The notes below the pieces were generated by a model. That model worked only from the letters and a program-made list of their open reading frames with translations, was not told the DNA's origin and made no database searches. From contig CP060227.1 of assembly GCA_023898525.1 (NCBI GenBank), positions 823,662-887,661 on the forward strand: a DNA stretch of 64,000 bases, read 5' to 3'. This document shows positions 5,942 through 32,420 of this stretch, piece after piece. How positions within the stretch are numbered: position 1 is the first letter of the stretch; the number at the start of each line of letters is the position of its first letter. The translations under genes were made by a program, and so were the position numbers. The stretch comes from Candidatus Nomurabacteria bacterium (GTDB lineage: Bacteria; Patescibacteriota; Minisyncoccia; Phycocordibacterales; UBA918).

Positions 5942-7960
5942 ATGAAAAATGATTCAGAGAGCCGAAAGCGCCTTAGTGAATTGCGTAAATTGGTTGATTA
6001 TCACCGGCATCTTTACCACTCTAAAGATGCTCCAGAGATTTCTGATCAAGCCTACGACGCTTTACTGCGTGAGTTGGGGGCTTTAGAAGAAAAACTAGAA
6101 GGTAAGAAAAGTCAAATAAGTGAAGCGGTGGGAGGTGATGTCAGTAATGCTTTTGCTAAAGTAAAGCACGAGGTACCGCAGTGGTCGTTTGATAATGTAT
6201 TTGACCTAAAAGAATTGACGGCTTGGGAGGAGCGTCTTTACCGCTATGTTCATAAGCAGGGCATGGAAGTGTCTAAGGTGGATTACGTGGTTGAACATAA
6301 GATTGACGGTTTAAAGCTGGTGATTGAATACAAGGCGGGCGAATTCTTTAGAGCTTTAACGCGTGGTGATGGTGAGGTGGGTGAAGATGTGAGTCATACT
6401 GCTCGTACTATTAAGTCATTACCTAAGCATCTTAAATATCCGGTTGATCTGATCTGTGTTGGTGAAGTGTGGATGGCGGCTGATGAATTTGAAAAATTAA
6501 ACACTGAGCGTCAGAAAATGGGCGACAGTCTTTTTGCTAACCCGAGAAATGCCGCCGCCGGTTCGCTGCGTCAACTTGATCCAGCAGTAGCCAGGTCCAG
6601 GAACTTGTCACTTTTTGTCTATGATGTTGATCGATTTGGGGGGCGGGAAGCGAAGCTTCCCGCCCCCGCGACCCAGTGGGAAGAACTTCAACTCCTTAAA
6701 AAACTAGGCCTACCTACCAACTCCTACCCTAAGTGTTGCCGAACCTTGGCTGAAGTAGAGGAATATTATCAAGAGTGGAAGACAAAGCACGAAGATTTGC
6801 CTTACGGAGTTGACGGGGTGGTAGTAAAGGTTAATTCGGTAGAAGTTCAAACGGTAGCCGGCTACACTGCTAAGTCACCGCGGTTTGGTATTGCTTATAA
6901 ATTTCCAGCCGTTGAAACCACTACAATCGTTGAGGACATCCAATTGCAGGTTGGTCGGACTGGTGTAGTTACTCCGGTGGCTCATCTGCGACCGGTTACG
7001 GTCGATGGTTCGACGGTGACCAGGGCTACACTTCATAACGAAGACCAAATCAAACGGCTGGATGTACGAGTGGGTGATACGGTTATAATTCGCAAAGCTG
7101 GTGACGTGATCCCTGAGGTGGTGATGGTTTTGCCAGAATTGAGACCGGAAAGCAGTCGACCATATAAATTCCCGAGGACAGTAAAAGATTGTGGTGGTGA
7201 CGGTTTGATTGAGCGTATACCAGGTACCGCCGCTTATCGTTGTGTTTCACTTGACTCGGACTTTGTGCATAGGCAACGAATGTATTATTTCGTAGCAAAA
7301 GGGGCTTTTAATATCGATGGGGTTGGTCCGCGAATTATCGACGCTTTACTTGAAAATAATCTAATTAAGGATGCGGCTGACCTCTTTACCCTTACAGTGG
7401 AACAATTTCTATCTTTACCAGGATTCAAAGAAAGGGCAGCCCAAAATGCAGTGACTGCTATTCAAAATGCCAAGCGAGTCTCCTTAGCTCGACTTCTGGT
7501 TGGTTTATCAATCGAACATGTTGGCGAAGAAACAGCCCGGCTTCTGGCCAAGAATTTTCCAAGTATTGAAGCAATCTTAGAGGCTAAATATGAGGATTTG
7601 GTGGTAATTGATGGGGTGGGTGAGGTGATTGCGGATACTTTAGTCTCTTGGCAAGCGGACAAAGAAGAGCAGTCTTTGATCAAAAAGCTGCTGCCGCACT
7701 TAGATATTTATAATGATGAAACAGAGGTTGGAAGTGAGCTTGAAGGAAAGACCTTTGTATTTACTGGTACGCTGACAAAATTTACACGACCGGAGGCGCA
7801 AGATAAAGTTAGAAAATTAGGTGGAAACGTAGCTAGTTCAGTGTCGACAAAAACTGACTATGTAGTAGTTGGTGAGGCGGCTGGTAGCAAAGCCAAGCAA
7901 GCTCGGGATTTGGGGGTGACAGTCTTGTCAGAAGCAGAGTTTTTAGAGCTCGTGGCATGA
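5942..7960 (+). CDS. ligA: NAD-dependent DNA ligase LigA
   Basis: 672 aa. Adenylation motif KIDGLK, OB fold, Zn finger CGG...C, HhH motifs and a C-terminal BRCT domain. Confidence 0.9.
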   Translation: MKNDSESRKRLSELRKLVDYHRHLYHSKDAPEISDQAYDALLRELGALEEKLEGKKSQISEAVGGDVSNAFAKVKHEVPQWSFDNVFDLKELTAWEERLYRYVHKQGMEVSKVDYVVEHKIDGLKLVIEYKAGEFFRALTRGDGEVGEDVSHTARTIKSLPKHLKYPVDLICVGEVWMAADEFEKLNTERQKMGDSLFANPRNAAAGSLRQLDPAVARSRNLSLFVYDVDRFGGREAKLPAPATQWEELQLLKKLGLPTNSYPKCCRTLAEVEEYYQEWKTKHEDLPYGVDGVVVKVNSVEVQTVAGYTAKSPRFGIAYKFPAVETTTIVEDIQLQVGRTGVVTPVAHLRPVTVDGSTVTRATLHNEDQIKRLDVRVGDTVIIRKAGDVIPEVVMVLPELRPESSRPYKFPRTVKDCGGDGLIERIPGTAAYRCVSLDSDFVHRQRMYYFVAKGAFNIDGVGPRIIDALLENNLIKDAADLFTLTVEQFLSLPGFKERAAQNAVTAIQNAKRVSLARLLVGLSIEHVGEETARLLAKNFPSIEAILEAKYEDLVVIDGVGEVIADTLVSWQADKEEQSLIKKLLPHLDIYNDETEVGSELEGKTFVFTGTLTKFTRPEAQDKVRKLGGNVASSVSTKTDYVVVGEAAGSKAKQARDLGVTVLSEAEFLELVA

Positions 7961-8298: not shown

Positions 8299-9714
8299 AT
8301 GTTGACGATTGCTGAATTAAGAAAAAAACTGTTGTCCGGTGAAATCACGGCGGTGGAATTGGTGAAAAAAACTTTGCAAGACATCCGCGAGAAAGATGAG
8401 AATATAAATGCTTTTATTGCAGTTTACGATGACGCAATTGAAGAGGCTAAAATGGCCGATGAGAGAATCGCTAAAGAAGGTGATAAAGTGCCACCTCTTT
8501 GTGGTATACCGGTAGCGATTAAAAATAATATTTTAATCAAAGGTAAGAAGGCTACGGCTGCCTCTAAAATGTTGGAAAATTACACCGCCACTTATGATGC
8601 GACTATTATTGCTAAACTAAAAGCGGCTGGCGCCATCTTGATTGGTGCTACTAATATGGATGAGTTTGCTATGGGTAGTTCAACTGAGAGCTCGTATTTT
8701 GGTGTGACCAAAAACCCGCTAGATCCAGAACGTGTACCGGGTGGATCTTCTGGTGGTTCGGCAGCGGCAGTAGCAATGGGTGTGGTGCCGGTAGCGATTG
8801 GTACTGACACCGGTGGATCAGTCAGACAACCAGCTAGTTATTGTGGTTTGGTGGCTTTTAAGCCAACTTACGGTGCAGTGTCTAGAAATGGTTTGATTGC
8901 TATGGGTTCTTCCCTTGATCAAGCTGGCCCGCTAACAAACACTGTGGCTGACGCAGAGGCAGTTCATGAAATTATGGCTGGACTAGATCCCCTAGATATG
9001 ACGACTATCGCCCCTGATACTTATGATGAGGTTGTTATCAAGGATTCTTATACTATCGGTGTACCAAGACACTTTCTGGCTGATGGTGTCGATAAAGATG
9101 TTCTAGAAGTATTTGAGGAACAACTTAAAACTCTAGAGTCAGAGGGACATAAGGTGGTAGATATTGAACTGCCATTGTTTGAACAGGGTTTGGCTGCATA
9201 TTATATAGTTATGCCGGCTGAAGTGTCTTCAAACCTGGCTCGCTATGACGGTATTCGTTATGGTTTGTCAGTAGATGGAGATACATTGCTGGATGTATAT
9301 GAGAAAACGCGAGCCGAGGGCTTTGGGAAGGAAGTGAAGCGGCGCATTTTGCTCGGTACCTACGTGTTGTCGTCCGGTTATTATGATGCATATTACCGAA
9401 AGGCAGAATTAGTGAGGAGCAAAATGCGCCGCGAACTAAACGACGTTTTCACCTCAGTTGATGCGATTGTGTTACCAACTACTCCAACTCCTGCCTTTAA
9501 ATTTGGAGAAAAGTCGAGTCCACTAGCTATGTATCGCGAAGATATATTTACCGTACCCGTAAATTTAGCTGGTGTTCCGGCTATTTCCTTCCCCATGGGT
9601 AAGGTTGAAAGGGAGGGTGTATCGCTTCCGGTTGGGGTACAATATATAGCACCACATGGCGGAGACGCTCGTCTCTTTAATATCGGTAAGCGATTGTACG
9701 ATGAGCGGATCTAG
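8299..9714 (+). CDS. gatA: Glu/Asp-tRNA amidotransferase subunit A (amidase signature family)
   Basis: Amidase signature GGSSGGSAAAVA. 471 aa. Confidence 0.9.
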   Translation: MLTIAELRKKLLSGEITAVELVKKTLQDIREKDENINAFIAVYDDAIEEAKMADERIAKEGDKVPPLCGIPVAIKNNILIKGKKATAASKMLENYTATYDATIIAKLKAAGAILIGATNMDEFAMGSSTESSYFGVTKNPLDPERVPGGSSGGSAAAVAMGVVPVAIGTDTGGSVRQPASYCGLVAFKPTYGAVSRNGLIAMGSSLDQAGPLTNTVADAEAVHEIMAGLDPLDMTTIAPDTYDEVVIKDSYTIGVPRHFLADGVDKDVLEVFEEQLKTLESEGHKVVDIELPLFEQGLAAYYIVMPAEVSSNLARYDGIRYGLSVDGDTLLDVYEKTRAEGFGKEVKRRILLGTYVLSSGYYDAYYRKAELVRSKMRRELNDVFTSVDAIVLPTTPTPAFKFGEKSSPLAMYREDIFTVPVNLAGVPAISFPMGKVEREGVSLPVGVQYIAPHGGDARLFNIGKRLYDERI

Positions 9715-9729
9715 AGTTGGTAAAACTTC

Positions 9730-10350
9730 ATGGATTCAACTTTAAATACTACAACCACAGCTACCACTAACACCGGAGGGGTACCTCTAGAACCAGTTAC
9801 GTTTGATGTTGTATCAGCAGTAGTCGGTCTAATTACTGGCACTTCGTACACCGGAGTGACTGATTTTTTTGGTGGTTTATGGAACGCGTTTGTTATCATA
9901 TCCTACACACTTTCCATCATAATGCTTCTTATTTATGTTTACGCCGCTACTCAGTATCGGCAACTATCTAACTTGCGCTTAGAAATGATGCATAAAAGAG
10001 AGCGATTGTATGATGAGCAGTTTCGTAGCGGTCCAAGAAACAGTCGTTTGGAGGATATTGATAAGCATATAACTTCAGATAACCCAAATGACTGGAAATT
10101 GGCTATTATAGAAGCTGATATAGTCCTGGATGATGAATTAAAGAAAGTTGGGTATACAGGAACATCGCTTGGTGAAAGACTGCGTAGTATCAATACAGCC
10201 CAGTTGAACAGTCTTGACGATGCCTGGCAAGCTCATAAGGTGCGAAACCAAATAGCACACGGTGGAGCAGATTTTGTCCTGACTAAGCACTTGGCCGAAA
10301 ATACCATCAAACAGTACAAGCGAGTTTTTGGGGAGCTGGGTATACGTTAA
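9730..10350 (+). CDS. Hypothetical membrane-anchored protein with a HEPN-like Rx4H motif
   Basis: Thr-rich N-terminus, one TM helix (WNAFVIISYTLSIIMLLIYVY) and a helical C-terminal domain containing KVRNQIAHGG (R-x4-H). Confidence 0.45.
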   Translation: MDSTLNTTTTATTNTGGVPLEPVTFDVVSAVVGLITGTSYTGVTDFFGGLWNAFVIISYTLSIIMLLIYVYAATQYRQLSNLRLEMMHKRERLYDEQFRSGPRNSRLEDIDKHITSDNPNDWKLAIIEADIVLDDELKKVGYTGTSLGERLRSINTAQLNSLDDAWQAHKVRNQIAHGGADFVLTKHLAENTIKQYKRVFGELGIR

Positions 10351-10391
10351 TTCAGGTCCGGCATTTGTGCTAATTAATTTGTATAGAAATA

Positions 10392-10445
10392 GACCTTAAA
10401 GAGGAGCGGCTAGCGACGGGAAAGGTCTACCCTTGGTTGTTTTAC
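10392..10445 (+). repeat. Conserved about 54-nt element, copy 1 (a second copy lies at 29745-29797)
   Basis: gaccttaaagaggagcggctagcgacgggaaaggtctacccttggttgttttac is near-identical to the second locus. It contains a GGAGG-like motif and a 6-7 bp stem. Confidence 0.5.
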
Positions 10446-10567
10446 TTGATTTTAATTAGCATAGGTCCCAGACATGTCATTGCTTTTTAGTAAAAAATGA
10501 TGTATTGTGTTGACTTAAGGCTAATCACGTTAGTCTTTTTAATTTAGAGTACTGGAATAAATACGTA

Positions 10568-10885
10568 GCGGGGTGAGAAAGTGTCAAAACACTTTCGCAA
10601 GACCTTGCCTAGTATTTCTTGAGGCTACGAAAAGAAATACTGACAAGGTGTACAGATCCTGTAAGGATGAGGAGAGGAAACTTTTTCGTTCCAGATAAGG
10701 TAAAAATAAATACATAGCGTGACTAAGAGAGGTATCGAGCGAGAGAATTATATAGCTCTCATAACCTCCCTGGAGAACGCTTTTGTTTGAGGAGAGGTAA
10801 AAATAAATACATAGCGGGGTAGAGGAGAGGTACCTCGGGAGGCTCATAACCTCCAGACCCCGGTTCGATTCCGGGCCCCGCAACA
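10568..10885 (+). ncRNA. tRNA-like / candidate structured RNA locus: three imperfect tandem repeats (R1-R3) ending in a T-arm plus acceptor. tmRNA is an alternative reading, less well supported
   Basis: AATAAATAC(A/G)TAGCG(G/T)G occurs three times (about 10556, 10704, 10802). CTCATAACCTCC occurs twice. The 3' end is CCCCGGTTCGATTCCGGGCCCCGCA. Strong internal hairpins are present. Confidence 0.35.
10815..10882 (+). ncRNA. Degenerate tRNA-like element with a CAU (Met-type) anticodon loop
   Basis: Acceptor GCGGGG/CCCCGC. D-like stem GAGG/CCTC. Anticodon stem GGAGG/CCTCC with loop CTCATAA. T-arm CCCGG-TTCGATT-CCGGG. It is one nt short at positions 8-9 and has a 6-bp acceptor stem. Confidence 0.4.
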
Positions 10886-10936
10886 CTAAGAAAAAACCAA
10901 GAGTATAACTCTTGGTTTTTTCTTAGTGTTGCGGGG
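10876..10936 (+). terminator. Long (about 27-bp stem) hairpin/terminator that overlaps the 3' acceptor strand of the tRNA-like element
   Basis: ccccgcaacactaagaaaaaaccaagagtataactcttggttttttcttagtgttgcgggg is a perfect inverted repeat with an inner T-run. Confidence 0.6.
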
Positions 10937-11040
10937 CGATAAAACTTTTGCTTAGCATTAAAAAATGTGTCCAGGTGAAAAAAATAATTTTAACTTTGCT
11001 ATACTTTAACTCATTATAGACTAAATTAATTGTTGCTATT

Positions 11041-14000
11041 ATGAATTACTCTATTTATAAAAAACCGCAAACAGCTGGATGTGTAAGTAACTCATTTAAT
11101 TTAGCCATTACTAAAAGTGCGAGTTTTGTTCTCGCACTTCTGCTTATATTAGGGTCGTTAGAAAACGTTTCCTTTGCAGCTGTTCTTACTAATGGCGATG
11201 CTGGATATATTACCAACATTCAAACCCGTGATGGAAGTGATCTGTTTAGATCTGATGTACGAGAGGGAAGTGGTGGATTCTTATACGCATATGACATTCC
11301 CGTCCCACCTGGTGTTAACGGCCTCACCCCGCAAATCTCGCTACAGTACAACAGTCAGGGCAGTTCGGACCAAGATATACTTGGCTATGGTTGGAATCTT
11401 TCTATTCCATACATTGAACGGGTGAACAAACACGGCATCAATAAGCTCTTCGACCCCGCCTACGAAACCTTTTACTCCAGTCTTTCTGGTGAGCTTGTAT
11501 TCGATGGGGTAGATTACCTCACAAAAATCAACCAAGGCGACTTCATGAGATATAGCCGATTAAGTAATGGGTGGGTTGTTACTACAAAAGACGGTACCGA
11601 ATATCACTTTGGTTCTGACGTAGTAGCCCAACAGTCAGACCCGACCGATATCACTAACATTTCTCGTTGGTACCTCAGCTCGATTACTGACACTAACGGC
11701 AATATGGTCTCATATTCATACGTTAAAGACACTGGCGCAATTTATCCTAGTACCATCACTTACGGCCCATACACCATCGTGTTCACAACCGAAGCTGCTC
11801 CCACTCACTCGTCCTATAGTCTTGGCTTTAAGGTTGAACGAGATCAGCGTATCAATGCTATTGAAATAAAGGAAAATACCACAATCTTCACTCGACACGA
11901 CCTAACCTACGCTACTGGTATCAATACTCAACGTGACCTTCTGGAGACAATTACTCAAACTGACGTTATCACCAACACTAGCTTACCGGCGGTGATCTTT
12001 GATTACGGCGGCGAAGAAATTCCTCATTGGCAGAGCGACAGTTCGTTTGTATTCCCAGAGCCAATGGGACTTCAAGACAACGGTGTTCGGTTTGGTGACC
12101 TGAATGGTGATGGTCTTACGGATATGATTCGATACGAACGATACTGGAACGACATTCCCTCTGCACGGTGGACAGCTCGTCGTGTACACATCAATAAAGG
12201 CAATGGTAACTGGGATATAGATGTCCCGTGGAGCTGGGATGATATTGAGACACCGTTCTTCTTACACATTAATGATGGTGTATTCAGTAACACCGATAAG
12301 CGTTACGACATGGGCGCGCGCTTAATCGATGTTAACGGAGATGGGCTAGATGACTTCGTCGCTGCTTACAACTGCCTAGACTGGAGTAGTTCAGACTGTT
12401 CAAATGCACCAAACTATATGAAGGAAATTCTAGGTCCAATCCAAATGGATGTCTACCTGAACTCTGGCTCAGGTTTTGTAAAAGACGGCACTAACTGGTT
12501 AAATTTGCAGGCTATGTCTAGTTGGGATTATTCTCCTGCTGATATGACCAATCCAGGCCGAGCATTTGTTGATGTGAATGCTGACGGCTTACCAGACATT
12601 GTTCAATCAGTCGCTACGCTAAACTTCGGCTCGCATCCAAGTGAAAATGTAGCTTCAAATATTTGGATAAACACGGGTAATGATTGGGAACTTTCATCCC
12701 TTACTCTTCCTGCGGCACTTGCCAAATATCCGTGGCACCCTAGTTACCCAAATCTTCGTAAATTCAGTGACTATGGAACTCGATTTGCTGACGTTAACGA
12801 CGATGGGTTAATCGATGTTTTACGAGGATATCGACAGTCATTCAGTGGTAGCGTTAATACGTATACTGACGAAAAAACTGTATACATCAACACTGGTGAT
12901 GGTTGGGAAGAAGACGTGTCTTGGAACTTACCTGTTGAGTTTGTTATTCAAGATCAAACTTCTGGTTATCAGATGTTTGATTTTAACGGTGATAAACTTC
13001 CAGATATTCTTCAATCGCACTACCATAACAATAATGGTTTTAGTTATAATTTATACCTGAACAAAGGTACTACATGGCATCTTGAGAATTACTCAGTGAA
13101 CAGTACTCACTATCCAGTGTATCCTCAGCCACCTTTCCCGCTTACCAGGACAGCCGCTTATACAGGCGGTGGTGGTACGGCTATGATCGATTTTGATGGT
13201 GATAATCTACTTGACGCCTGGAATCTGTATTATCTAGACTTAGATGAAACTCAAAGCTCCGGTGGGAGTGTTTTCCTAAATACTTCAGATATTCCAGACC
13301 TAGTGACCTCAATCATTGATAAAAGCGGTTCCATTACTTCTATCAACTACGACGGCTACCTTGCTACTGTTCAATCAGACTATGTAAAAGTTGGTAACTC
13401 ACCAGTCAATCCGATAGTGGTCACTCATAAAACCATCGATAATAACCACGGTCACACGGTCACTGAAACATATGAGTACAATGATGCTCATCAGTACGTC
13501 GAGGTGAGCGATATTTTTGATCGCAAATTTGCCGGCTTCGGAAAAGTCACCAAAACCACCGATTTAGGAAAAGAAACCACTTACTACCACCAAGGAAACG
13601 GCGTAGCGACTACAACCGAAGAGGGCATAGATGACGAAGCATTAATCGGGCAGGTTTATCGCACAGAAATAACTGATCTTTCTGACAATCTCTATACACT
13701 TTCTCGTCAAAATTTTGCCACCACTTCACTTGGTAACGGCAGTACGTTTGTAAAACTGGAAAGCGGTCTCAAGCTTGATTACGATGGTGATAGCGACAAG
13801 AAAGCTTCGGCCAACAGCTACACCTACGACAACACCAATGGCTCACTCCTTACCAAAACGGAGTGGGGAGAGGTGAGTGGAAATACTGACGGTACTTTCT
13901 CAGATACCGGTACCGACAAGCAAGTGACAACTATTGAGTACGCTACCAATGCGAACGGTATAGTTCTACCATCCAAGCAAACCTTGACCGACAACTCTGA

Positions 14001-17000
14001 CACCAAAGTCCAAGAGTCTCGCTTCTACTACGATAACCAACCGCTTGGCACAGTTACTCTAGGTAACAAGACCAAAGAAGAGAATTGGCTAGGTGGCAGT
14101 AGTTATACAAACAAACAGTGGACATACAACAGCCTAGGGCTGGTAACCGCCGAAACTGATCCAGATGGTAATACCACCAACTATACTTACGATACCTATA
14201 ACTTATATCCAGCTAGTGTCACCAACGCCCTCAATCAAACCACACAGTACGAGTATGACTATTCTTCCGGGCAAGTAGCGACCACCACTGACGCTAATGG
14301 CAATATTTTTGCCACCACTTACGACGGGTTTGGTCGACCGCTTACCGTTACATCACCTGACCCACAGACCGGTACTCCGGTAGTACAGACCGAGTATGTC
14401 TATACCGATACTCCCGGCAGTGTCAGTGTGCAAAAGAAAGATTATCTAAATAGCGGATTAGTTAAAAACTCGTATACTTTCCTAGATGGCTTTGGCCGAA
14501 AGATGCAGGAAAGGCAAGAAGCGGAAGGAATGGATCAATACGTGGTGCGTGATTATGTCTACGGAAGCAATGATCTTTTGGAAAAAGAGTCACTGCCGTA
14601 CTTTGGTACCGGAGCGGCGAGAAGTGCTTCTACCACCAACGCAAACCTCTTAAGCACCTACGCTTACGATCCATTGGCTAGAGTAACAAGCGTAGCAACT
14701 GTGGTTGGTACGACCACTACCGCCTACGACCAATGGAAAGAAACCGTTACCGATACTGCCGGCAATGATAAGGTATTCCAGTATGACGCTTTTGGTCGAT
14801 TGGCAGCCGTGACCGAAAACGAGGGAACCAATTCATACACTACCAACTACACTTGGAATAATCTCGGTAATCTGACCAAGATAACTGACGCCGAAAGTAA
14901 TGTGCGAAATATAAGTTACGACGGACTTGGTCGCCGTACTAGCCTGGAAGATTTGCATGCACCAAGTGATAGTACTTTTGGAACTTGGACTTTTGCTTAT
15001 GACAACGCTGGCAACCTGACCAGCAAGACTAATCCAGAGAGTCAGACTACCAACTACACCTACGACGCTCTTAATCGCCAGTTGACCGAAGACTACACCG
15101 GACAGACTGGTACGGAAATCACTTATACTTATGATACTTGTACGGGTGGCGTGGGGCAACTTTGTACCGCTGCCAATTCTTCCGCTACCACTAACTACAC
15201 CTACACCCCAAACAACCTCTTGGCTTCAGAAGCTAAAACAATAAGTAGCAATACCTACACCACTAGCTATGAGTATGACCGCCAAGGCAACCAAACACTC
15301 ATTACTTATCCAGATAATTCAGAAGTGAAGTACACCTTTAATAAAGGTGGGCAGGTAGACAAAGTGGAACAAAAAGAGGGTGGGGGAACTTTTGCAAACA
15401 TTGTGAGTAATATTGATTATGGACCACATGGTCAGATGGAAAATATCGAATACGGCAATGGCTCTATAACTACTCGTACTTATGATGCGACCGAACTGTA
15501 CCGATTGAAAAATATCCTCACCACTGCCACCAGTACCTATGGCACCGGCGGTCCGGGAGAGGAGCTTATAAGTATTGAAGCCAAACTGGCTTCACTTACC
15601 ACTGAGCTCCCGCTTGCGACTACCAGTGAAGCCTTGGTGGTGGAGACGGTAGAGGAGCCGGTAGAGGAGATGGTCGCAACTTCTTCTGATCTTGCTATCG
15701 AACCGGCTACTTCAGATTCAACTACTGCAACTTCTACTAATATCGAAGCGACAAGTACAAACCAAGAAATAGCCGAAGCCGAACTCACCTCGACTACAAC
15801 CACAACTGATGAGGTGGTGGAGACTAGCGAAATTGCCACCACCACCACGGTCGCTGCTCCAGACGCGACTACCACTGCGTCTTCGTCGTCTGAAACCGCT
15901 ACCGGTACAGCTGACCAAGTGGTGAGTGTGGTAGAAGCTGATGTGGTATTTGATATACCTACCACCACTGCCACCAGTACTTTACCAGCAGTACCAACAG
16001 CTATTGCTTCTACCAGCAGTAACTCCACACCACCAGTTGCGGAAGCGGTGGTAGTTAATCAGGTAGTGGCTAAAAGCAAGCTAAAGCTAAAAATCAACAA
16101 CGCCCACGAAGCCCGAATGTGGCAAAAATACCACCATGAGCGAGTAGCTGGATTAGAAGCAGAGGGAGCTAATCAGGCTGTGCTTGATAAAGCCAAGTAT
16201 GCTCAGGATCAGTTGGAGTCATACTTAATTGAGGATGGTTATCTAAAAGAAAAAGGTGGAAGCGTAAAAGGACACGCTAAAGATTATGTAGAGAGCCAGG
16301 GTAAGAAACTTATAAGCAAAGTGGTGGACTTTATCTTACCGGATACCGTCCAAGCTTACCTATTTGGGTTAGAAGATTTTGAAAATTGTTCAGCTCTTCC
16401 GTGTACCTTTGACAACAATGTATCTTGGGGAGGGGTTACCCCGGCTTTAGATAACACCAGTAAGGTGGCTGGTGCGGATTCACTAAAAGAAACTGTGACT
16501 GGAGAAGGTTCCGGTGGCTTAGAGTTTGTTGATCAAAACACCGGCGAGATTTATGCTCAGTTTAAGGTATTTATTCCGAGTAATATGACTTGGGGACCTT
16601 CCGGTTATCATGGCATTCTTAGATTTGAAGATACGATCAACAACTCAGTTTTCTGGATGAATGTTGAGGATTGGGGCACAGCCAGACTAACCATGATGGG
16701 AGATGTTCTACCGTGGACTGACACCGGAATTGATTTGGTGAAAGGGGCGGTCAACACTATTGAAGTACGCTTTAAGACTGGAGCCACTAACGGCGATGTA
16801 GATATCTGGCTCAACAACACCAACGAAAGTGCACCTGACTACAACGGAAGTGGTACCCTAAACACCGGTACTGATAATGTTGACTATGTAATCGCCGGAG
16901 TTACTTATACTCCCGAAGCGATTAGTACCACCTACTTCGATGATATTGCTATCGACACTACCTTTATTGGTGAGCTAACTTCAGGTGGCCAACCGCCGGT

Positions 17001-18960
17001 GGTGCCATTTGTTGAGAATGTCCAAAACCTTTCCTATACCTACGACACTGTCGGTAATATTACCGAGATAGTAGACAACAGCGGTACCGACTCCGCCGGT
17101 ACCATCACCTACACCTACGACGACCTCTACCGCCTTATCTCAGCTTCCACTACTAATGCTAGTACTACTCCATACCAAGAAACCTATACCTACAACAGTA
17201 TCGGTAACGTCCTCAGCAAGTCTGATGTTGGTACGTATAGTTATGATGGTGGACAGAGTGGAGGAACCAGCTACTACATCTATGACGATAGCATCACTAC
17301 CGGTTGGACAGACTGGTCTTGGTGGACTACCATCAACCCAAGCGCCACCTCTCCTGTCTACTCAGGACTCTATTCATTGGGGTTAGTATACACCCAACCC
17401 TGGGCTGGTATCTCTTATCACAACAACAGTTTCGACAGCTCACCATATGATAATCTAGAGCTGGCGGTTAATGTCGGTACCGACACTACAGCCAATCTCT
17501 ACCTCTATTTCACCAACAGTGCCAGTACACCTTTTACCATCATTAACCTAAAAGACTACGTCACCGGCGGTTTCCAAGCCAACACCTGGCACAGCCTCAC
17601 CATTCCACTTTCAGACTTAGGTTACCAAAACTATCAAGGCGCCACTGAACTAAACATAGAGACCGACCAAGCCGCGACAGTGAATTTTGACAGTATTCGT
17701 TTGACTAGTACCGGCGGAGGAGGAAGCTACGCCAACCCCCACGCTGCCACCACCATCGGCGGCACCACCTACACCTACGACCAAAACGGTAACCTCCTAA
17801 CCGACGGTAATACCACTAACACCTGGAACTACCGCAACGAACTAACTGAGTCCACAAAAGCAGGAATAACGACCAGCTATGGATATGACCACAATGGTGA
17901 TCGAGTGTTCAAGACTACTTCCGAAGGAACGACTTATTATCCTTTCGCTAATTACGAAATTACTGATACTGGTACTACCACAAAGCACATCTACATGGGT
18001 GACCAATTAGTTGCCACGATTGAAGGTTCTGGTGCTGGAGCGTTGACGTATTACAACCATCTTGATCATCTCGGTGGTACCAGTGTGGTAACCGATGGTA
18101 TTGGAGCTATCACCCAAGAATTGGACTACTACCCATTCGGTGATACGAGGATAGATAATGAGTACGGAGACTTTAGACAACATATTCAGCACTCAGGTCA
18201 CCAGAAAGACGATGAAACAGGACTCATCTACCAAGGTGCACGTTACTATAATTCTGGTATCGGACGATATACATCACAAGATCCAGCAAACTTACGAAAT
18301 CCAGCGCAGTTCCTCTATGACCCACAACAGTTAAATACCTATGCGTATGCAAGGAATAATCCACTGAAGTACATTGATCCTACGGGGGAGAAGATTGAGC
18401 TTGTTTCTAGACCAGTAATTTCTTCTTATGATGCACATATGTTCTATCGAGTTACTCCAGATAATCCAGGCCAGATTTCTATTGATGGAATTCCTCAGGG
18501 CACTGAACAGTTTTCGATAGGGGCTTACAACCGAGGTGGTTTCTTAGGTATCGGCAATAAATTGACTCCAGAGTTTAGTTACGAAGGAGGTCCAGTGAAT
18601 ACTGACACCCCATACTTAAACGGGGAAAAGGCGCCTACAGCAAGTGTTGTTATCACACCACCAAACAACATGTCAGATACAGAGTTTATTAACAGTCTTG
18701 GTGCTTCAGCAAATAGTATCGACAAGACAGGTTATTATATGTTTGGTAAAACTGGTAAATTTGGTGTAGCTAATTCAAATAACTTCGTATACGAAGTTGG
18801 TAATAGGAGTGGTGTTGGTAATCAGGTCAGCTCGTTCAATTCAGGTGCATATACTCCAGGACAGAGTCAAGGAATCCCAACTGCAACATTGCTTGATAAT
18901 ATAAGGTCTAGCCTGAACAGTATTAAGGAGAGATTGTCCAAAAAAGATGATAGCGAATAA
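11041..18960 (+). CDS. Giant secreted polymorphic-toxin protein (2639 aa): signal peptide, SpvB/TcB-like N-terminal domain, FG-GAP-like repeats, RHS/YD repeats, S/T-rich linker plus LamG/CBM-like insert, Rhs core, variable C-terminal toxin domain
   Basis: Signal peptide ASFVLALLLILGS. DxNGDGxxD repeats (FGDLNGDGLTDM, IDVNGDGLDDF, VDVNADGLPDIV...). Many YD repeats (YTYDALNRQ, YEYDRQGNQ, YTYDTVGNI). Rhs core GARYYNSGIGRYTSQDP...NTYAYARNNPLKYIDPTGE, followed by about 200 unique residues. Confidence 0.85.
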   Translation: MNYSIYKKPQTAGCVSNSFNLAITKSASFVLALLLILGSLENVSFAAVLTNGDAGYITNIQTRDGSDLFRSDVREGSGGFLYAYDIPVPPGVNGLTPQISLQYNSQGSSDQDILGYGWNLSIPYIERVNKHGINKLFDPAYETFYSSLSGELVFDGVDYLTKINQGDFMRYSRLSNGWVVTTKDGTEYHFGSDVVAQQSDPTDITNISRWYLSSITDTNGNMVSYSYVKDTGAIYPSTITYGPYTIVFTTEAAPTHSSYSLGFKVERDQRINAIEIKENTTIFTRHDLTYATGINTQRDLLETITQTDVITNTSLPAVIFDYGGEEIPHWQSDSSFVFPEPMGLQDNGVRFGDLNGDGLTDMIRYERYWNDIPSARWTARRVHINKGNGNWDIDVPWSWDDIETPFFLHINDGVFSNTDKRYDMGARLIDVNGDGLDDFVAAYNCLDWSSSDCSNAPNYMKEILGPIQMDVYLNSGSGFVKDGTNWLNLQAMSSWDYSPADMTNPGRAFVDVNADGLPDIVQSVATLNFGSHPSENVASNIWINTGNDWELSSLTLPAALAKYPWHPSYPNLRKFSDYGTRFADVNDDGLIDVLRGYRQSFSGSVNTYTDEKTVYINTGDGWEEDVSWNLPVEFVIQDQTSGYQMFDFNGDKLPDILQSHYHNNNGFSYNLYLNKGTTWHLENYSVNSTHYPVYPQPPFPLTRTAAYTGGGGTAMIDFDGDNLLDAWNLYYLDLDETQSSGGSVFLNTSDIPDLVTSIIDKSGSITSINYDGYLATVQSDYVKVGNSPVNPIVVTHKTIDNNHGHTVTETYEYNDAHQYVEVSDIFDRKFAGFGKVTKTTDLGKETTYYHQGNGVATTTEEGIDDEALIGQVYRTEITDLSDNLYTLSRQNFATTSLGNGSTFVKLESGLKLDYDGDSDKKASANSYTYDNTNGSLLTKTEWGEVSGNTDGTFSDTGTDKQVTTIEYATNANGIVLPSKQTLTDNSDTKVQESRFYYDNQPLGTVTLGNKTKEENWLGGSSYTNKQWTYNSLGLVTAETDPDGNTTNYTYDTYNLYPASVTNALNQTTQYEYDYSSGQVATTTDANGNIFATTYDGFGRPLTVTSPDPQTGTPVVQTEYVYTDTPGSVSVQKKDYLNSGLVKNSYTFLDGFGRKMQERQEAEGMDQYVVRDYVYGSNDLLEKESLPYFGTGAARSASTTNANLLSTYAYDPLARVTSVATVVGTTTTAYDQWKETVTDTAGNDKVFQYDAFGRLAAVTENEGTNSYTTNYTWNNLGNLTKITDAESNVRNISYDGLGRRTSLEDLHAPSDSTFGTWTFAYDNAGNLTSKTNPESQTTNYTYDALNRQLTEDYTGQTGTEITYTYDTCTGGVGQLCTAANSSATTNYTYTPNNLLASEAKTISSNTYTTSYEYDRQGNQTLITYPDNSEVKYTFNKGGQVDKVEQKEGGGTFANIVSNIDYGPHGQMENIEYGNGSITTRTYDATELYRLKNILTTATSTYGTGGPGEELISIEAKLASLTTELPLATTSEALVVETVEEPVEEMVATSSDLAIEPATSDSTTATSTNIEATSTNQEIAEAELTSTTTTTDEVVETSEIATTTTVAAPDATTTASSSSETATGTADQVVSVVEADVVFDIPTTTATSTLPAVPTAIASTSSNSTPPVAEAVVVNQVVAKSKLKLKINNAHEARMWQKYHHERVAGLEAEGANQAVLDKAKYAQDQLESYLIEDGYLKEKGGSVKGHAKDYVESQGKKLISKVVDFILPDTVQAYLFGLEDFENCSALPCTFDNNVSWGGVTPALDNTSKVAGADSLKETVTGEGSGGLEFVDQNTGEIYAQFKVFIPSNMTWGPSGYHGILRFEDTINNSVFWMNVEDWGTARLTMMGDVLPWTDTGIDLVKGAVNTIEVRFKTGATNGDVDIWLNNTNESAPDYNGSGTLNTGTDNVDYVIAGVTYTPEAISTTYFDDIAIDTTFIGELTSGGQPPVVPFVENVQNLSYTYDTVGNITEIVDNSGTDSAGTITYTYDDLYRLISASTTNASTTPYQETYTYNSIGNVLSKSDVGTYSYDGGQSGGTSYYIYDDSITTGWTDWSWWTTINPSATSPVYSGLYSLGLVYTQPWAGISYHNNSFDSSPYDNLELAVNVGTDTTANLYLYFTNSASTPFTIINLKDYVTGGFQANTWHSLTIPLSDLGYQNYQGATELNIETDQAATVNFDSIRLTSTGGGGSYANPHAATTIGGTTYTYDQNGNLLTDGNTTNTWNYRNELTESTKAGITTSYGYDHNGDRVFKTTSEGTTYYPFANYEITDTGTTTKHIYMGDQLVATIEGSGAGALTYYNHLDHLGGTSVVTDGIGAITQELDYYPFGDTRIDNEYGDFRQHIQHSGHQKDDETGLIYQGARYYNSGIGRYTSQDPANLRNPAQFLYDPQQLNTYAYARNNPLKYIDPTGEKIELVSRPVISSYDAHMFYRVTPDNPGQISIDGIPQGTEQFSIGAYNRGGFLGIGNKLTPEFSYEGGPVNTDTPYLNGEKAPTASVVITPPNNMSDTEFINSLGASANSIDKTGYYMFGKTGKFGVANSNNFVYEVGNRSGVGNQVSSFNSGAYTPGQSQGIPTATLLDNIRSSLNSIKERLSKKDDSE

Positions 18961-18964
18961 ATAA

Positions 18965-19243
18965 ATGATTATTATGAAAAAACAATTTATATCAGCATAC
19001 CTAGGGTTATCTACAGGAATATTCCCCTTAGTGTGTTACAGAGTTTATGAGAATTATGGGATCAGAGGTGGTCTAAATGAAGTATTAGAGGGACTTTTGC
19101 TCTATTTACTTTTGTTCATTCCAATTTCTATCGTTCTAGTTTTAGCTGCAAAAGTGTTAGAAAAAATGAGTGTAAAATTGAATAATAAAATATTATTCCT
19201 AGTATCGTTGGCAATTGCTGTAATTTTCCTCTACTTGCTGTAG
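18965..19243 (+). CDS. Small 2-TM membrane protein; candidate immunity protein for the Rhs C-terminal toxin
   Basis: 92 aa, hydrophobic, starting 5 nt after the giant gene stop, as in a toxin-immunity arrangement. Confidence 0.4.
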   Translation: MIIMKKQFISAYLGLSTGIFPLVCYRVYENYGIRGGLNEVLEGLLLYLLLFIPISIVLVLAAKVLEKMSVKLNNKILFLVSLAIAVIFLYLL

Positions 19244-19440
19244 GTGACTAATCCATCTTAGCTATTACGGAAAAATGTAATTCTGACCCTTGGTCTGCAT
19301 TCGGTATAGTTCCGCCAAGAACAACAGACTTATTGCCTTTGGTGACTTCAATACAATTATCTAAAAGTAATCTTCTCTTGGTATCAAAAGTGTTTGCTTT
19401 ATTAAGCCTTAGTCTTAAGGTCGTGCAGTATTGAGGAAAT

Positions 19441-20200
19441 GGGGTCAGCCACCATTTATGATAAAATAAATGAATGCCAAGAATAAAAAGAGTAGATGTT
19501 GGTGGTGAAGTATATCACGTACTAAATCGTGCTAATGCTCGAGTGCAGATATTTGATAACAAAAAAGATTATCAGCAATTTGAAGAAATACTTGAAGAGG
19601 CTATTGAAAAATACGAAGTACCATTACTGGCATATTGTGTTATGCCAAATCACTGGCATATGGTACTGCAACCAAAACAAGATGGTGATATGCAGAAATT
19701 TATTGGGTGGCTTTCTAATACGCATACTCGTAGGTGGCATGTTACAAAAGATACAATAGGTCAAGGTCATCTATATCAGGGTCGATACAAATCATTTATT
19801 TGCGAACAAGACCATCACCTACTTACAGTTCTTAGATACGTTGAACGAAACGCTAAAAAAGCAAATTTAGTCAAAAAGGCTGAAGACTGGCAATGGTCAA
19901 GTGTATGGAGAAGAGAAAATGGTACTTTAGAACAAAAGAAAATATTAAGTAACTGGCCTATATCTATACCAAGAGACTATTTAAATCTTCTTAATAAACC
20001 TATGAATGAGTCTGAAGAAGAGGCTTTAGAAAAATCAGAAGAAAGAAGTATACCTTTTGGAGAAGAGGAGTGGGTTAATAGAAAAGTTAAAAAGTATGAG
20101 ATTGAACAAGTGTTACGGGGAGTAGGTAGACCTAAAAATGGTGGCTGACCCCATTTCTGACCCCATTTCCCCATTTCCACCATTTCCATTTCCGGAAAGG
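19441..20200 (+). mobile_element. REPtron-like unit: rayT gene flanked by inverted REP-like repeats, plus a CCATTTC tandem array
   Basis: GGGGTCAGCCACC at 19441-19453 and its exact reverse complement GGTGGCTGACCCC at 20140-20152. Then CCCCATTTC-type units repeat 5 times (20149-20200). Confidence 0.6.
19474..20148 (+). CDS. rayT: REP-associated tyrosine transposase RayT (Y1 HUH transposase, IS200-like fold) with a C-terminal extension
   Basis: YHVLNRAN. HUH motif PNHWHMV. GHLYQGRYKS. RYVERNAKKANLV...WQWSS. Confidence 0.8.
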   Translation: MPRIKRVDVGGEVYHVLNRANARVQIFDNKKDYQQFEEILEEAIEKYEVPLLAYCVMPNHWHMVLQPKQDGDMQKFIGWLSNTHTRRWHVTKDTIGQGHLYQGRYKSFICEQDHHLLTVLRYVERNAKKANLVKKAEDWQWSSVWRRENGTLEQKKILSNWPISIPRDYLNLLNKPMNESEEEALEKSEERSIPFGEEEWVNRKVKKYEIEQVLRGVGRPKNGG

Positions 20201-20276
20201 TGACATTATTCTGCATACATTAAAACACAGGAAAAACTTGCTAATATAACCATAAAATTGGTATATTCTTTTAACT

Positions 20277-20957
20277 ATGCAATGTATTATTTTGGCGGCT
20301 GGCAAGGGATCAAGACTTAGGCCGATAACAGACACTATCCCTAAACCGTTAGTGAAAGTTGACGGAAAAACCCTGATGGATCACGTAGTAGGGGCGTTAC
20401 CTAGTTCAATAAAGGAATTGATTATTGTTGTAGGTTATAAAGGTGACATGATAAGGGAATACTGTGGGGACAGCTTTTACGGACGACCGGTTACTTATTT
20501 GGAACAAAAGGAAATAAATGGTCCGGCCAAGGCGTTATGGCTCGCCAAAGATTTGATTAAAGGACGATTTCTTTTTATGTTTGCTGATGATATTCATGGT
20601 CGTGACGACATGGCGAGGGCGGTTTCTTATAGTCGCTCTATCTTGGCAACCACCAGTGACACTCCGGAACGCTTTGGTGTAATTGTTCGTAACCCTGATG
20701 GTACGATTGCTGATATGGTAGAAAAACCTTCATCCCCATCCTCCAATTTAGTTGCTACCGGACCAATGGTGTTGGATCAGCATATCTTTGATTTTGCTCC
20801 CGAGGCACCAATTAATGGTGAATATTTCATGCCTGAAATAATTATGCGCTATAAGGAGAAATATCCAATGGCGGTTGTGGAAGAGAACTTTTGGTTGGCG
20901 ATTGGTTACCCTGAAGACTTGGAAAAAGCTGAAAAGAAGATACAATCACTATCTTAA
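20277..20957 (+). CDS. Sugar-phosphate nucleotidyltransferase (NTP_transferase family)
   Basis: N-terminal MQCIILAAGKGSRLRPITDTIPKPL is the G-x-G-x-R pyrophosphorylase motif. Confidence 0.7.
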   Translation: MQCIILAAGKGSRLRPITDTIPKPLVKVDGKTLMDHVVGALPSSIKELIIVVGYKGDMIREYCGDSFYGRPVTYLEQKEINGPAKALWLAKDLIKGRFLFMFADDIHGRDDMARAVSYSRSILATTSDTPERFGVIVRNPDGTIADMVEKPSSPSSNLVATGPMVLDQHIFDFAPEAPINGEYFMPEIIMRYKEKYPMAVVEENFWLAIGYPEDLEKAEKKIQSLS

Positions 20958-20967
20958 ATAATTTATT

Positions 20968-21651
20968 ATGCAATGTGTTATCCTGGCGGCGGGAAAAGGA
21001 ACCCGCATGCGGCCTTTAACTGAACAAACTCCAAAACCGTTAATAGAAGTCTGTGGCAAACCTTTATTGCAGCATATCGTCGAAGCTTTGCCTGATGAAG
21101 TCGATGAAATAATCTTAGTGGTTAATTATCTTGAGGAGCAAATAAGGCGACATTGCGGTCTGCATTACTGCGGTAAATTGGTTCAGTATGTGCACCAAGA
21201 GAACGCGGTTGGGGGGACTGGTGAGGCTTTGCTGGCTGCGGCGCCACTTATCGAAGGAAGGTTTATGTTTATGTATGCTGATGACATTCATGGGTCGTAT
21301 GCTCTCAAAGCAGCTGTAACTTATCCTTATGCAATGCTTTCGGTGCAGCACGATGAACCACAGCATTTTGGTGTTTTGGATCTAAACTCGGACGGCACTC
21401 TCAAGGCTATTCATGAAAAGCCAGCAGAACCTACATCTAATCTTATAAACATCGGCGGGATGGTTTTGGACAAAAAGATATTTAAATATGATGTGGCACG
21501 GTCAGCGAATGGCGAATTGTATGTGACCGATATGGTAACGGCTTTTGCTCAGGATTATCCTGTTATGGTAGTGGAGCAATCTTTGTGGTTGCCGCTTGGG
21601 AAGCCGGAGGATATTTTGGCGGCGGAAAAAATGCTAGGGTGCAACCGGTAA
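20968..21651 (+). CDS. Sugar-phosphate nucleotidyltransferase, tandem paralog of the upstream gene
   Basis: MQCVILAAGKGTRMRPLTEQTPKPL. Alignable to the upstream gene along its whole length. Confidence 0.7.
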   Translation: MQCVILAAGKGTRMRPLTEQTPKPLIEVCGKPLLQHIVEALPDEVDEIILVVNYLEEQIRRHCGLHYCGKLVQYVHQENAVGGTGEALLAAAPLIEGRFMFMYADDIHGSYALKAAVTYPYAMLSVQHDEPQHFGVLDLNSDGTLKAIHEKPAEPTSNLINIGGMVLDKKIFKYDVARSANGELYVTDMVTAFAQDYPVMVVEQSLWLPLGKPEDILAAEKMLGCNR

Positions 21652-31663: not shown

Positions 31664-31877
31664 CCATGAGATGTACCTTTTGTAGCAATACAATAGAAGT
31701 TGAGTTGTATACAGGTGATGTTGCTCATAAAAAATGTCAAACTAAAAATATGGTCACAGATAAATAGGGATAACTGGGGTCAGTATCCATTTCCAACCAA
31801 CATCCTCCCAATTAACACAACCACCCATGCACCACCACATGAAACTACAACCAGACATGTTTAGATTCCATCTTTAC

Positions 31878-32420
31878 CCCGCATGCTTGTCATCGGGGGA
31901 AACATTGTCATACTAAACAGTAATGAAAGGTAAACCACAACATATCAAAAAACCACACAACAAAACTCTGTTCATCTATCATCTGGTATGCCCAGTAAAA
32001 TACAGAAGAGATGTATTTACACCACCAATATCAAAAACATTTAAAAACTTATGTTTGGAATTTGGTCCAGCTTACGAGATATACTTTCTTGAAATAGGAA
32101 TAGACGAAGATCATGTACACTTTTTAATACAAACAATTCCAAACATACGTTTCTCTGATACGGTAAAGAAAATAAAAAGCATCACCTCCAATCATCTCTT
32201 TAAAATCCACCCTGAACTAAAAATAAAACTCTGGGGAGGAAAGTTCTGGACTGAAGGTTATTATGCAAATACAGTGGGTAATGCCAGTATGGATATTATT
32301 ACCAATTACGTTAAAAACCAAGGTTATCCCGAATACCAACAGCTACACTCCGCACCAGTTCAGACTTCACTGTTTACTACCTAGTCCAACGCCGATACCC
32401 CGTATGCTTGTCATCGGGGT
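31878..32420 (+). mobile_element. IS200/IS605-family insertion sequence (543 bp) with subterminal hairpins, inserted 3' of TTAC
   Basis: Left hairpin CCCCGCATGCTTGTCATCGGGG (31877-31898). Right hairpin CCCCGTATGCTTGTCATCGGGG (32398-32419). It carries a Y1 tnpA gene. The flanking sequence is ...CTTTAC|. Confidence 0.7.
31923..32384 (+). CDS. IS200/IS605 family transposase TnpA (Y1 HUH)
   Basis: HUH motif DHVHFLIQ. Catalytic Tyr region GYYANTVG. 153 aa. Confidence 0.85.
   Translation: MKGKPQHIKKPHNKTLFIYHLVCPVKYRRDVFTPPISKTFKNLCLEFGPAYEIYFLEIGIDEDHVHFLIQTIPNIRFSDTVKKIKSITSNHLFKIHPELKIKLWGGKFWTEGYYANTVGNASMDIITNYVKNQGYPEYQQLHSAPVQTSLFTT

Follow-up and report, generated by a model that had tools for sequence, protein, structure and literature searches.

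The DNA analysed here is a stretch of 64,000 nucleotides (nt) from a Candidatus Nomurabacteria bacterium (contig CP060227.1, positions 823,662–887,661), referred to below as the window and numbered from its first letter. At 19436–20157 it carries a unit of approximately 720 bp in which a gene for a Y1 transposase of RayT-like fold lies between two perfect inverted 22-nt copies of one sequence. The unit is very likely a TIRtron, i.e. a gene for a TIR-associated tyrosine transposase (TIRYT) bracketed by terminal inverted repeats (TIRs). The features of the locus and one related site in the window are as follows.

19436–19457, + strand: 5′ TIR core GAAATGGGGTCAGCCACCATTT, one arm of the 22-nt inverted pair
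19459–19467, + strand: extended −10-like element TGATAAAAT (TGnTAnnnT), read from the sequence, with a putative promoter function
19474–20148, + strand: transposase gene (assigned to the TIRYTs) of 224 amino acids (aa), the sole open reading frame (ORF) of the region, matching Pfam Y1_Tnp with an E-value of 3.4e-21
20136–20157, − strand: 3′ TIR core, the reverse complement of the 5′ core, covering the last codons and the stop codon
20158–20193, − strand: outer stutter array, in which the 5′ part of the core is repeated directly as nested, 3′-truncated copies
31772–31792, + strand: degenerate solo core AACTGGGGTCAGTATCCATTT, intergenic, 17 of 21 bases retained, 85 nt upstream of an IS200-type element

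A preliminary description of this DNA had reported perfect 13-bp inverted copies around the gene, with the downstream copy overlapping the stop codon. Both statements hold, and the repeat is longer than was thought. The 13-mer GGGGTCAGCCACC (19441–19453 on the + strand and 20140–20152 on the − strand) is embedded in arms of 22 nt whose complementarity is 100% (19436–19457 and 20136–20157), and the octamer GGGGTCAG at 19441–19448 matches the GGGGWSAS motif. The 3′ arm encodes the last four codons (K-N-G-G) and the stop codon TGA (20146–20148); the stop codon also lies within the core in 23 of 28 clade members. As single-stranded DNA, the 5′ core forms a hairpin that has a TCAG loop and, in its 8-bp stem, a single bulged A (−4.9 kcal/mol, z −2.45). 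The foot of the hairpin reads GRAAATGG and a T-rich tail is present on its 3′ side; core positions −3 to −1 are G/A, G/A/T, and A/T, followed by AATGG. An Rfam scan of 19200–20400 gave no match. The 64-kb window has no full core copy beyond the flanking pair. The third site near the IS200-type element, also noticed earlier, has four mismatches to the 21-mer, and since block-shuffled windows gave a mean of only 0.17 matches at up to five mismatches, it is probably a decayed solo copy of the core rather than a chance resemblance. Could the repeat and the array themselves be products of chance or of assembly? The small size of the motifs is the one point in favor of this idea, to which we give a negligible probability. 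It is refuted by the perfect 22-nt inverted pair and by recurrence, as the same locus is present in two independent Logan assemblies and the same architecture in dozens of independent assemblies.

The HUH motif PNHWHMV recognized in the preliminary description occupies residues 58–64 of the encoded protein. The catalytic set consists of H60 and H62 (in NHWH), Y122, and N126 (in YVERNA), and further conserved elements are W141-S142-S143 and a C-terminal PFGxxxW...GRPKNGG tail. Among 48 homologues, H60, H62, N126, and S143 are invariant while Y122 (at least 90% of sequences) and S142 are nearly so, and A127 of YVERNA is nearly invariant in the candidate phyla radiation (CPR) clade. Y122 aligns with the catalytic tyrosine region of ISDra2 TnpA. 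NHWH and YVERN[AP] were found in 15 of 15 inspected relatives, those at 41–57% identity having either YVERNP or YVERNA. A total of 6779 protein relatives were detectable, and the best 120 are almost all 223–225 aa long and 65–100% identical, from many Patescibacteria lineages; after clustering at 50%, 514 clusters matched the window protein at E ≤ 1e-30. The inspected homologues end in ...GRPK(K)NGG or the close variants KNSG, KKGG, and KNGD. Relatives on plasmids reached at most 36% identity and mostly covered the catalytic core alone (residues 1–143 to 1–178). A Pfam scan of residues 143–224 found no domain, and Bac_DnaA_C, HTH_23, and HTH_28 were not matched in this tail. The C-terminus ...GVGRPKNGG (20095–20148; RGRPRK in relatives and published TIRYTs) resembles an AT-hook (RGRP). 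The TIRs of the family all bear A-tract and T-tract feet, and the 3′ TIR itself encodes the last codons of the GRP tail; the conserved, AT-hook-like tail may make contact with these A/T feet.

The preliminary description had called the protein a RayT-type transposase. A RayT-like Y1/HUH enzyme that is not an IS200 TnpA is indeed encoded, but it fails the canonical RayT model. The best NCBIfam match was the RayT equivalog NF047646 with 69.8 bits, under its cutoff of 80, and all eight relatives that were scored on this model also fell under the cutoff (62–76 bits). The IS200 equivalog NF033573 gave 24 bits against a cutoff of 55, while the TnpA of the IS200-type element in the window, a positive control, scored 120.8 bits. 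The AlphaFold (AF2) model of the protein has a pLDDT (predicted local distance difference test) score of 90.6, and its best match in a fold search of the Protein Data Bank (PDB) was 4er8_A, E. coli TnpA_REP bound to a hairpin of the repetitive extragenic palindromic (REP) type (E 5.8e-8, TM score 0.75 normalized to the target, 169 aligned columns), with ISDra2 and IS608 TnpA ranked below it. It took this fold search to rank RayT first; a PDB sequence-profile search favored ISDra2 TnpA (2e-4) over 4er8 (0.08), and a single-sequence PDB search was marginal. Comparison with the TIRYT reference sequences (Additional file 5 of PMC3733652) placed the protein among the TIRYTs by homology, with 47% identity over 221 aa to rba2408 of Rhodopirellula baltica (RB2408; E 4e-81) and 43% over 221 aa to gbm2474 of G. 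bemidjiensis (E 6e-68). The identity to E. coli RayT was 21% over 140 aa (E 1e-5).

An ordinary insertion sequence (IS) of the IS200/IS605 family, such as IS608 and ISDra2, would share Y1 HUH chemistry and hairpin ends with the unit, as well as the lack of an evident target-site duplication (three copies inspected in a relative). The Y1_Tnp domain, the ISDra2 TnpA profile match, and the multi-copy behavior of a relative described below are in line with such an element. This identity is extremely unlikely and is refuted by the failed model score (24 bits against 120.8 for the genuine IS200 TnpA) together with the architecture of the ends. The IS200/IS605-type element in the window is complete (31877–32419, TnpA ORF 31923–32384) and is bounded by the same-orientation hairpins CCCCGCATGCTTGTCATCGGGGG (31877–31899) and CCCCGTATGCTTGTCATCGGGG (32398–32419), whereas the ends of our unit are inverted. 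In addition, the unit has Y---N instead of the Y---Q motif, lacks tnpB, and encodes an 80-aa C-terminal tail that is absent from IS200 TnpA, which Quentin et al. (2018) describe as subclass 1.1 with the core only.

TIRYTs were introduced as RayT-like genes flanked by TIRs by Di Nocera, De Gregorio, and Rocco (2013; PMC3733652). In that paper, the repeats are described as partly self-complementary, many of them carry GGGGWSAS (the majority type), they are single, dimeric, or clustered in some genomes, and some overlap the 3′ end of the gene (“3′ov” in the legends of Figures 8 and 9). TIR copies of the present clade have such arrangements in some genomes, and the unit in the window has the 3′ overlap. 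It also shares full-length homology (47% to rba2408 and 43% to gbm2474), bracketing by TIRs with no GTAG REPs, GGGGWSAS within the TIR (GGGGTCAG), and the C-terminal PFG...RGRP(K) tail. We assign it to the TIRtrons because of the full-length TIRYT homology and the GGGGWSAS-type TIR. The host differs, since the phylum Patescibacteria was unsampled in that study and the TIRYT alignment shown there has no gene from it; homology and architecture thus extend the TIRYT/TIRtron class to Patescibacteria as a sequence-based assignment. A further difference is the YVERNA of the CPR clade versus YVERNP in relatives. As far as the consulted text of Di Nocera et al. (2013) goes, it has no counterpart to the near-invariance of the core over ~100 species, the multi-copy TIR-bounded units, the outer stutter arrays, or the −10 element fixed 6 nt from the ATG. 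What is new in detail here is the phylum-wide invariance of the end sequence, evidence for multiplication of core-to-core units, gene-less derivatives, and stutter arrays.

Quentin, Siguier, Chandler, and Fichant (2018; PMC6006769) classified the TIRYTs as TnpA_Y1 subclass 2.1 (Bertels group 1). Compared with the motifs in their Table 1, rather than with subclass profiles, those of the window protein are close but not identical. The length of ~224–238 aa is shared (median 238 aa there, 224 aa here); NHWH corresponds to NHVH or NH[YF]H, and the aromatic-Q pair that stands for WQ is YQ here and FQ there (W[EQ] or FQ). The subclass tyrosine motif is Y[IV]E.NP (YIELNP or Y[IV]HLNP in Table 1) versus YVERN[AP] here. 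Also alike are the “SS” proximal tail motif (W-S-S here) and the lack of a canonical REP. These authors detected no repeats with secondary structure in the vicinity of subclass 2.1 genes, in contrast to the bulged hairpin formed by the CPR core, and their text does not mention Patescibacteria. A full-text literature search found TIRYT only in these two papers, neither of which, in the parts accessible, includes an activity assay or covers Patescibacteria. Full-text searches also gave no match for the 13-mer and only irrelevant matches for RayT together with Patescibacteria; in one preprint, K07491 comes up as a neighbor of rbcL in an archaeon.

The architecture is reminiscent of the REPtron, in which a RayT/TnpA_REP gene (E. 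coli YafM, PDB 4ER8) lies between inverted palindromic repeats. The imperfect bulged hairpin resembles the group-Ec REPs of RayT systems, the repeats are extragenic and dispersed like REP, BIME, and REPIN sequences, and the inverted doublets described below resemble REPINs. A canonical domesticated RayT/REP system would consist of a single-copy, vertically inherited gene upholding REP hairpins that are useful to the host as terminators or mRNA stabilizers. The best structural match (TnpA_REP), the best NCBIfam match (the RayT model), a highly conserved protein of fixed length in many lineages, invariant and mostly extragenic cores with a T-rich tail after the hairpin, and the one gene copy in the window all accord with it. 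We nevertheless consider such a system unlikely. The window protein and the eight tested relatives stay below the cutoff, identity to RayT is 21% over the core alone, the hairpin foot lacks the GT[AG]G guide tetranucleotide, the tyrosine motif is YVERNA rather than Y---NP, and an extra 80-aa tail is present. The core counts seen are low (at least nine, six, and four per assembly in three assemblies), and, as described below, the gene can be multi-copy with near-identical copies bounded by the repeats, the loci are non-syntenic, the unit is missing from the orthologous site in relatives, and gene fragments and an IS-disrupted copy exist. The TIRtron works like a RayT/REP system, with Y1 chemistry, inverted palindromic ends, and dispersed extragenic copies, yet it stands outside that family on four counts: the model score is too low, the GTAG foot and the Y---NP motif are missing, and single-copy status does not hold.

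The distribution of the core was examined by an exact-match scan of one genome per species for the 18-mer AATGGGGTCAGCCACCAT. At least 120 stretches in 99 assemblies, nearly all of Patescibacteria, contained it, against a chance expectation of ~17 (2 × 596e9 / 4^18), and no exact 18-mer was found in the viral contigs searched. Hosts among the matches listed were Kaiser-, Lipton-, Staskawicz-, Andersen-, Azam-, Harrison-, Kerfeld-, Uhr-, Taylor-, Yonath-, Wolfe-, Gribaldo-, Nomura-, and Saccharibacteria and Minisyncoccia. Some matches came from bins labeled Elusimicrobia, Omnitrophota, and Bacteroidetes, and a few were GC-rich and chance-like. Real cores with stutter are present at L021, L047, L064, and L089 (JAKLQJ01, “Elusimicrobia bin N2.88”) and at L087 and L088 (Omnitrophota bins), and one Elusimicrobia bin has at least nine cores on three contigs. 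Such cores in bins of other phyla represent either cross-phylum transfer or mis-binned Patescibacteria contigs.

Conservation ends within approximately 3 nt of the 18-mer on each side. The genes themselves are far from invariant, as 28 distinct clade genes encode proteins that are 67% identical, while their DNA identity is 65% overall and 43% when third codon positions alone are compared. This pattern indicates, from sequence comparison, a very strong constraint on the repeat core across Patescibacteria. In eight loci ascertained through the protein (65–79% identity), the core is kept with at most one or two changes, and all protein-ascertained members at 65% identity or above have AATGGGGTCAGCCAC(C/T)ATT. 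Among 80 protein-ascertained metagenome loci, relatives at 41–57% identity are bracketed by their own clade-specific inverted repeats of 20–30 nt, such as GAAAAGGGGACTGTCCCCTTTTC, AAAAGGTGCCTGGCACCTTTT, and AAAAGGTGCCAGCCACCAAATCTGGG. The TIRs of relatives include perfect palindromes (−9 to −10 kcal/mol) and a few that do not fold, next to the bulged hairpin of the CPR core, which agrees with the merely partial self-complementarity of TIRs in the published account.

The preliminary description had suggested a REP-like family dispersed in this genome. A dispersed and mostly extragenic family does exist and is seen in other Patescibacteria, but the GT[AG]G foot of REPs is lacking. The source genome is not among the matches listed, and the window itself contributes the two flanking copies and the degenerate one. 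The 168 core copies among the matches listed comprise 37 that flank a full-length gene, 15 gene-less inverted doublets, approximately 26 that adjoin a recognizable remnant of a gene end, 84 solo cores with no remnant, and six too near the end of the locus to be classed. In a separate tally, 98 cores were located more than 150 nt from any Y1 gene match; 18% of them were inside ORFs of at least 100 aa, as compared with 80% of random positions. Besides full units, the family has mini-units with internal deletions, cores paired as inverted doublets, and numerous extragenic solo cores. At L114 (1711–1801), an inverted doublet has kept the promoter and the first six and last nine codons (MPRINS|GVGRPRNGG*), and judged by its sequence this mini-unit is an internal-deletion derivative resembling a REPIN or a miniature inverted-repeat transposable element (MITE). 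Gene-less inverted doublets at L050 (1256–1320) and L027 (5307–5370) have spacers of ~25 nt.

The 5′ repeat is closely followed by a promoter-like signal. The element TGATAAAAT ends 6 nt before the ATG, and TGnTAnnnT occurs within 40 nt upstream of the ATG in 24 of 28 distinct clade members, with its last T exactly 6 nt before the ATG in 23. A promoter scan by consensus, in which a match at −35 is required, missed the TGnTAAAAT element, and a terminator scan found none here. Because the −10-like element ends 6 nt before the ATG, the arrangement would imply a leaderless or near-leaderless mRNA and a promoter abutting the TIR. With the promoter next to the 5′ core, bound enzyme could repress its own gene, and autoregulation is plausible. 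If the inverted repeats were cis-regulatory signals alone, i.e. a promoter operator and a stop-codon terminator rather than recombination sites, the position of the 5′ copy against the conserved −10-like element and that of the 3′ copy at the stop codon would be explained. Such a role may coexist with recombination but cannot account for dispersal: the 84 solo cores with no gene remnant, the 15 gene-less doublets, duplicated units that end exactly at the repeats, and the negative terminator scan make a purely regulatory function very unlikely.

Evidence on mobility includes a 525-kb contig, Ga0611991_0065, which has three gene units that are identical or differ by 1 nt and whose flanks are unrelated. 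Identity among these copies begins at ATAAATGGGGTCAG and ends at CCCCATTTC. Three near-identical units with boundaries at the repeats represent IS-like behavior, not that of a single-copy RayT. The same contig has a fourth copy split by an IS of the rve type, partial duplications of the ends, and a 43%-identical paralogue. No consistent target-site duplication was found at the three near-identical copies. The loci of close homologues have no common neighbors. In approximately 20 of 120 listed loci, the core is within 150 nt of a true contig end, which is expected because repeats break assemblies.

Relatives whose NTP-transferase neighbors are 84–85% identical lack the unit at the position it occupies in the window. 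In one of them (L217), the gene order is ligase, GatC, GatA, a 207-aa gene, tRNA-Met, and two NTP-transferases. Relative to this order, the window has an inverted tRNA-Met and ~9.4 kb of extra sequence, which comprises the TIRtron and two ORFs, one of 2639 aa (RHS-type) and one of 92 aa. Because the whole 9.4-kb segment from tRNA-Met to the NTP-transferases differs, a precise empty site and a target sequence cannot be defined. On this comparison of sequences, the TIRtron sits at the edge of a lineage-specific island.

Several arrangements were observed at the related loci L125–L128. The split TIRtron at L125 (7206–8925) encodes residues 1–100 at 7242–7541 and residues 86–224 at 8496–8915; the IS that splits it has Pfam matches to HTH_38 and, weakly, to rve (integrase core), and five tandem 5′ cores are located upstream of the split copy (7012–7206). 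The 43%-identical paralogue of 212 aa at 4850–5560 comes with a separate TIR (AAACAGGGTCAGACCCAT) that bears outer stutter units of its own, so that two cognate enzyme/TIR pairs coexist in one genome. At 10001–18203 (6349–14551 in L126), two near-identical direct TIRtron copies flank a cluster of ~6.8 kb with genes for an acetyltransferase, RNHCP, a radical SAM/SPASM protein, MR_MLE, an M20 peptidase, ATP-grasp, and an Asp/Glu racemase, an arrangement that resembles a composite transposon. In L128, a 1.4-kb short-read contig, the left-hand flank of the distal copy is linked with the right-hand flank of the proximal one. It could be the junction of an excised circle or of a duplication, or else an assembly chimera, and it was not used as evidence because a short-read contig of this length spanning a 720-bp repeat may be chimeric.

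The tandem array that the preliminary description had placed downstream of the gene was recovered by Tandem Repeats Finder (TRF) as 2.1 units of CTGACCCCATTT at 20145–20169 and 3.2 units of CCCCATTT at 20161–20187, and by eye it reaches ~20193. On the − strand it reads GAAATG, GAAATGGTG, GAAATGGGG, AAATGGGGTCAG, and then the full core. Among the matches listed in other genomes, 42 of 157 cores have at least one such truncated outer unit. Each unit opens with the lineage's own three bases and AATGG, and truncations cluster after 5–7 nt of the core (AATGG, or this plus 1–2 G) or after 10–11 nt (through the loop, GGTCAG). The frequency of AATGG per 60 nt is 0.83 outside the core versus 0.23 inside it, and in full units the stutter is found on the two outer sides in 14 of 28 and 15 of 28 cases. 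At an orthologous site, L127 and L125/L126 differ by one stutter unit between samples. Distant relatives whose TIRs are unrelated in sequence (L175, L176, L184, and the L125 paralogue) show stutter as well. This recurrence led us to drop plain slippage of a single sequence as an explanation; hairpin-induced slippage or selection for arrays of half-sites is possible. In one homologue (P0119, 252 aa), the called N-terminus MDKWGQDKWGQDKWGQPPF... results from translating three stutter units (GACAAATGGGGTCAG) together with the 5′ core, which means that gene callers sometimes extend an ORF into the array.

By analogy with E. coli TnpA_REP and the TnpA of IS608 and ISDra2, the enzyme would recognize the core, which would probably be folded into its bulged hairpin in DNA that becomes single-stranded as it is replicated. 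Tyr122 and a metal bound by the HUH motif would then nick the DNA a few bases 5′ of the hairpin foot and form a 5′-phosphotyrosine link, and rejoining of strands would mobilize or copy the complete unit as well as solo cores and derivatives with deletions. The predicted cleaved strand is the one carrying AAATGGGGTCAGCCACCATTT, with the nick 2–5 nt 5′ of AAATGG. Since the cores are inverted, the recognized strand would be the top one at the left end and the bottom one at the right end. For the nested truncated copies outside both ends, we favor an origin as scars of an abortive cycle of nicking, short strand-displacement synthesis, and religation; with such an origin, the start of each stutter unit would mark the nick site.

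A bolder version of this scheme, which we put forward tentatively, treats the TIRtrons of the clade as an autonomous type of IS outside the catalogued IS families that combines a Y1/HUH enzyme, inverted hairpin ends, and symmetric copy-out. Each end would be nicked 2–5 nt beyond the hairpin foot, one end on the top strand and the other on the bottom strand, the flanking 3′-OH ends would prime strand displacement (copy-out), and abortive rounds would leave the stutter. The same copy-out reaction would also have given rise to non-autonomous derivatives, namely the solo cores and the inverted doublets.

Several points weigh against the unit being an active TIRtron that operates in this manner. 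The nick sites, the choice of strand, and the recognition of a hairpin are all inferred, and inverted ends are at odds with the one-strand peel-and-paste transposition of IS200/IS605. The hairpin is modest (−4.9 kcal/mol) and some TIRs of relatives are unfolded, which leaves room for recognition of duplex DNA. With a single unit and a single degenerate core in 64 kb, it is unproven that the TIRtron is active in its source organism, and the clearest multi-copy case is a single metagenomic contig. Protein conservation (65–80% identity at a fixed 224 aa) is also compatible with a domesticated gene. Because loci were picked by exact match to the 18-mer, the invariance of the core is overstated, and errors in the binning of metagenome-assembled genomes may be the source of the Elusimicrobia, Omnitrophota, and Bacteroidetes matches.

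The clade is an unusually clean natural data set, with a compact 720-bp unit, near-identical copies, mini-derivatives, and solo ends. Its end sequence of 18–22 nt stays identical while the synonymous sites of the gene are saturated, and the stutter arrays near the ends vary between populations. Such a data set yields testable predictions on the cut position and strand for a RayT-like enzyme. The spread of REP-type repeats is still listed as an open question in the RayT literature, and the autonomous-IS reading, if true, would provide a natural-history handle on how REP/TIR sequences disseminate. For practical purposes, the invariant 18-mer is a near-specific sequence marker of Patescibacteria contigs, and stutter arrays mislead gene callers, as in P0119.

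The surroundings of the unit in the window have further features. In front of a tRNA-Met gene (10813–10884) are two or three incomplete copies of its 5′ part together with the sequence upstream of it (~10570–10810), and after the gene comes the 2639-aa RHS-type ORF (11041–18960); the whole region 10560–18960 looks like a tRNA-associated genomic island. Directly downstream of the TIRtron, two tandem paralogous sugar-nucleotidyltransferase genes (226 and 227 aa) occupy 20277–21651. Relatives retain this pair and also a promoter-like AAAACTTGCTA...TATA region, the start of which is ~45 nt past the stutter array.

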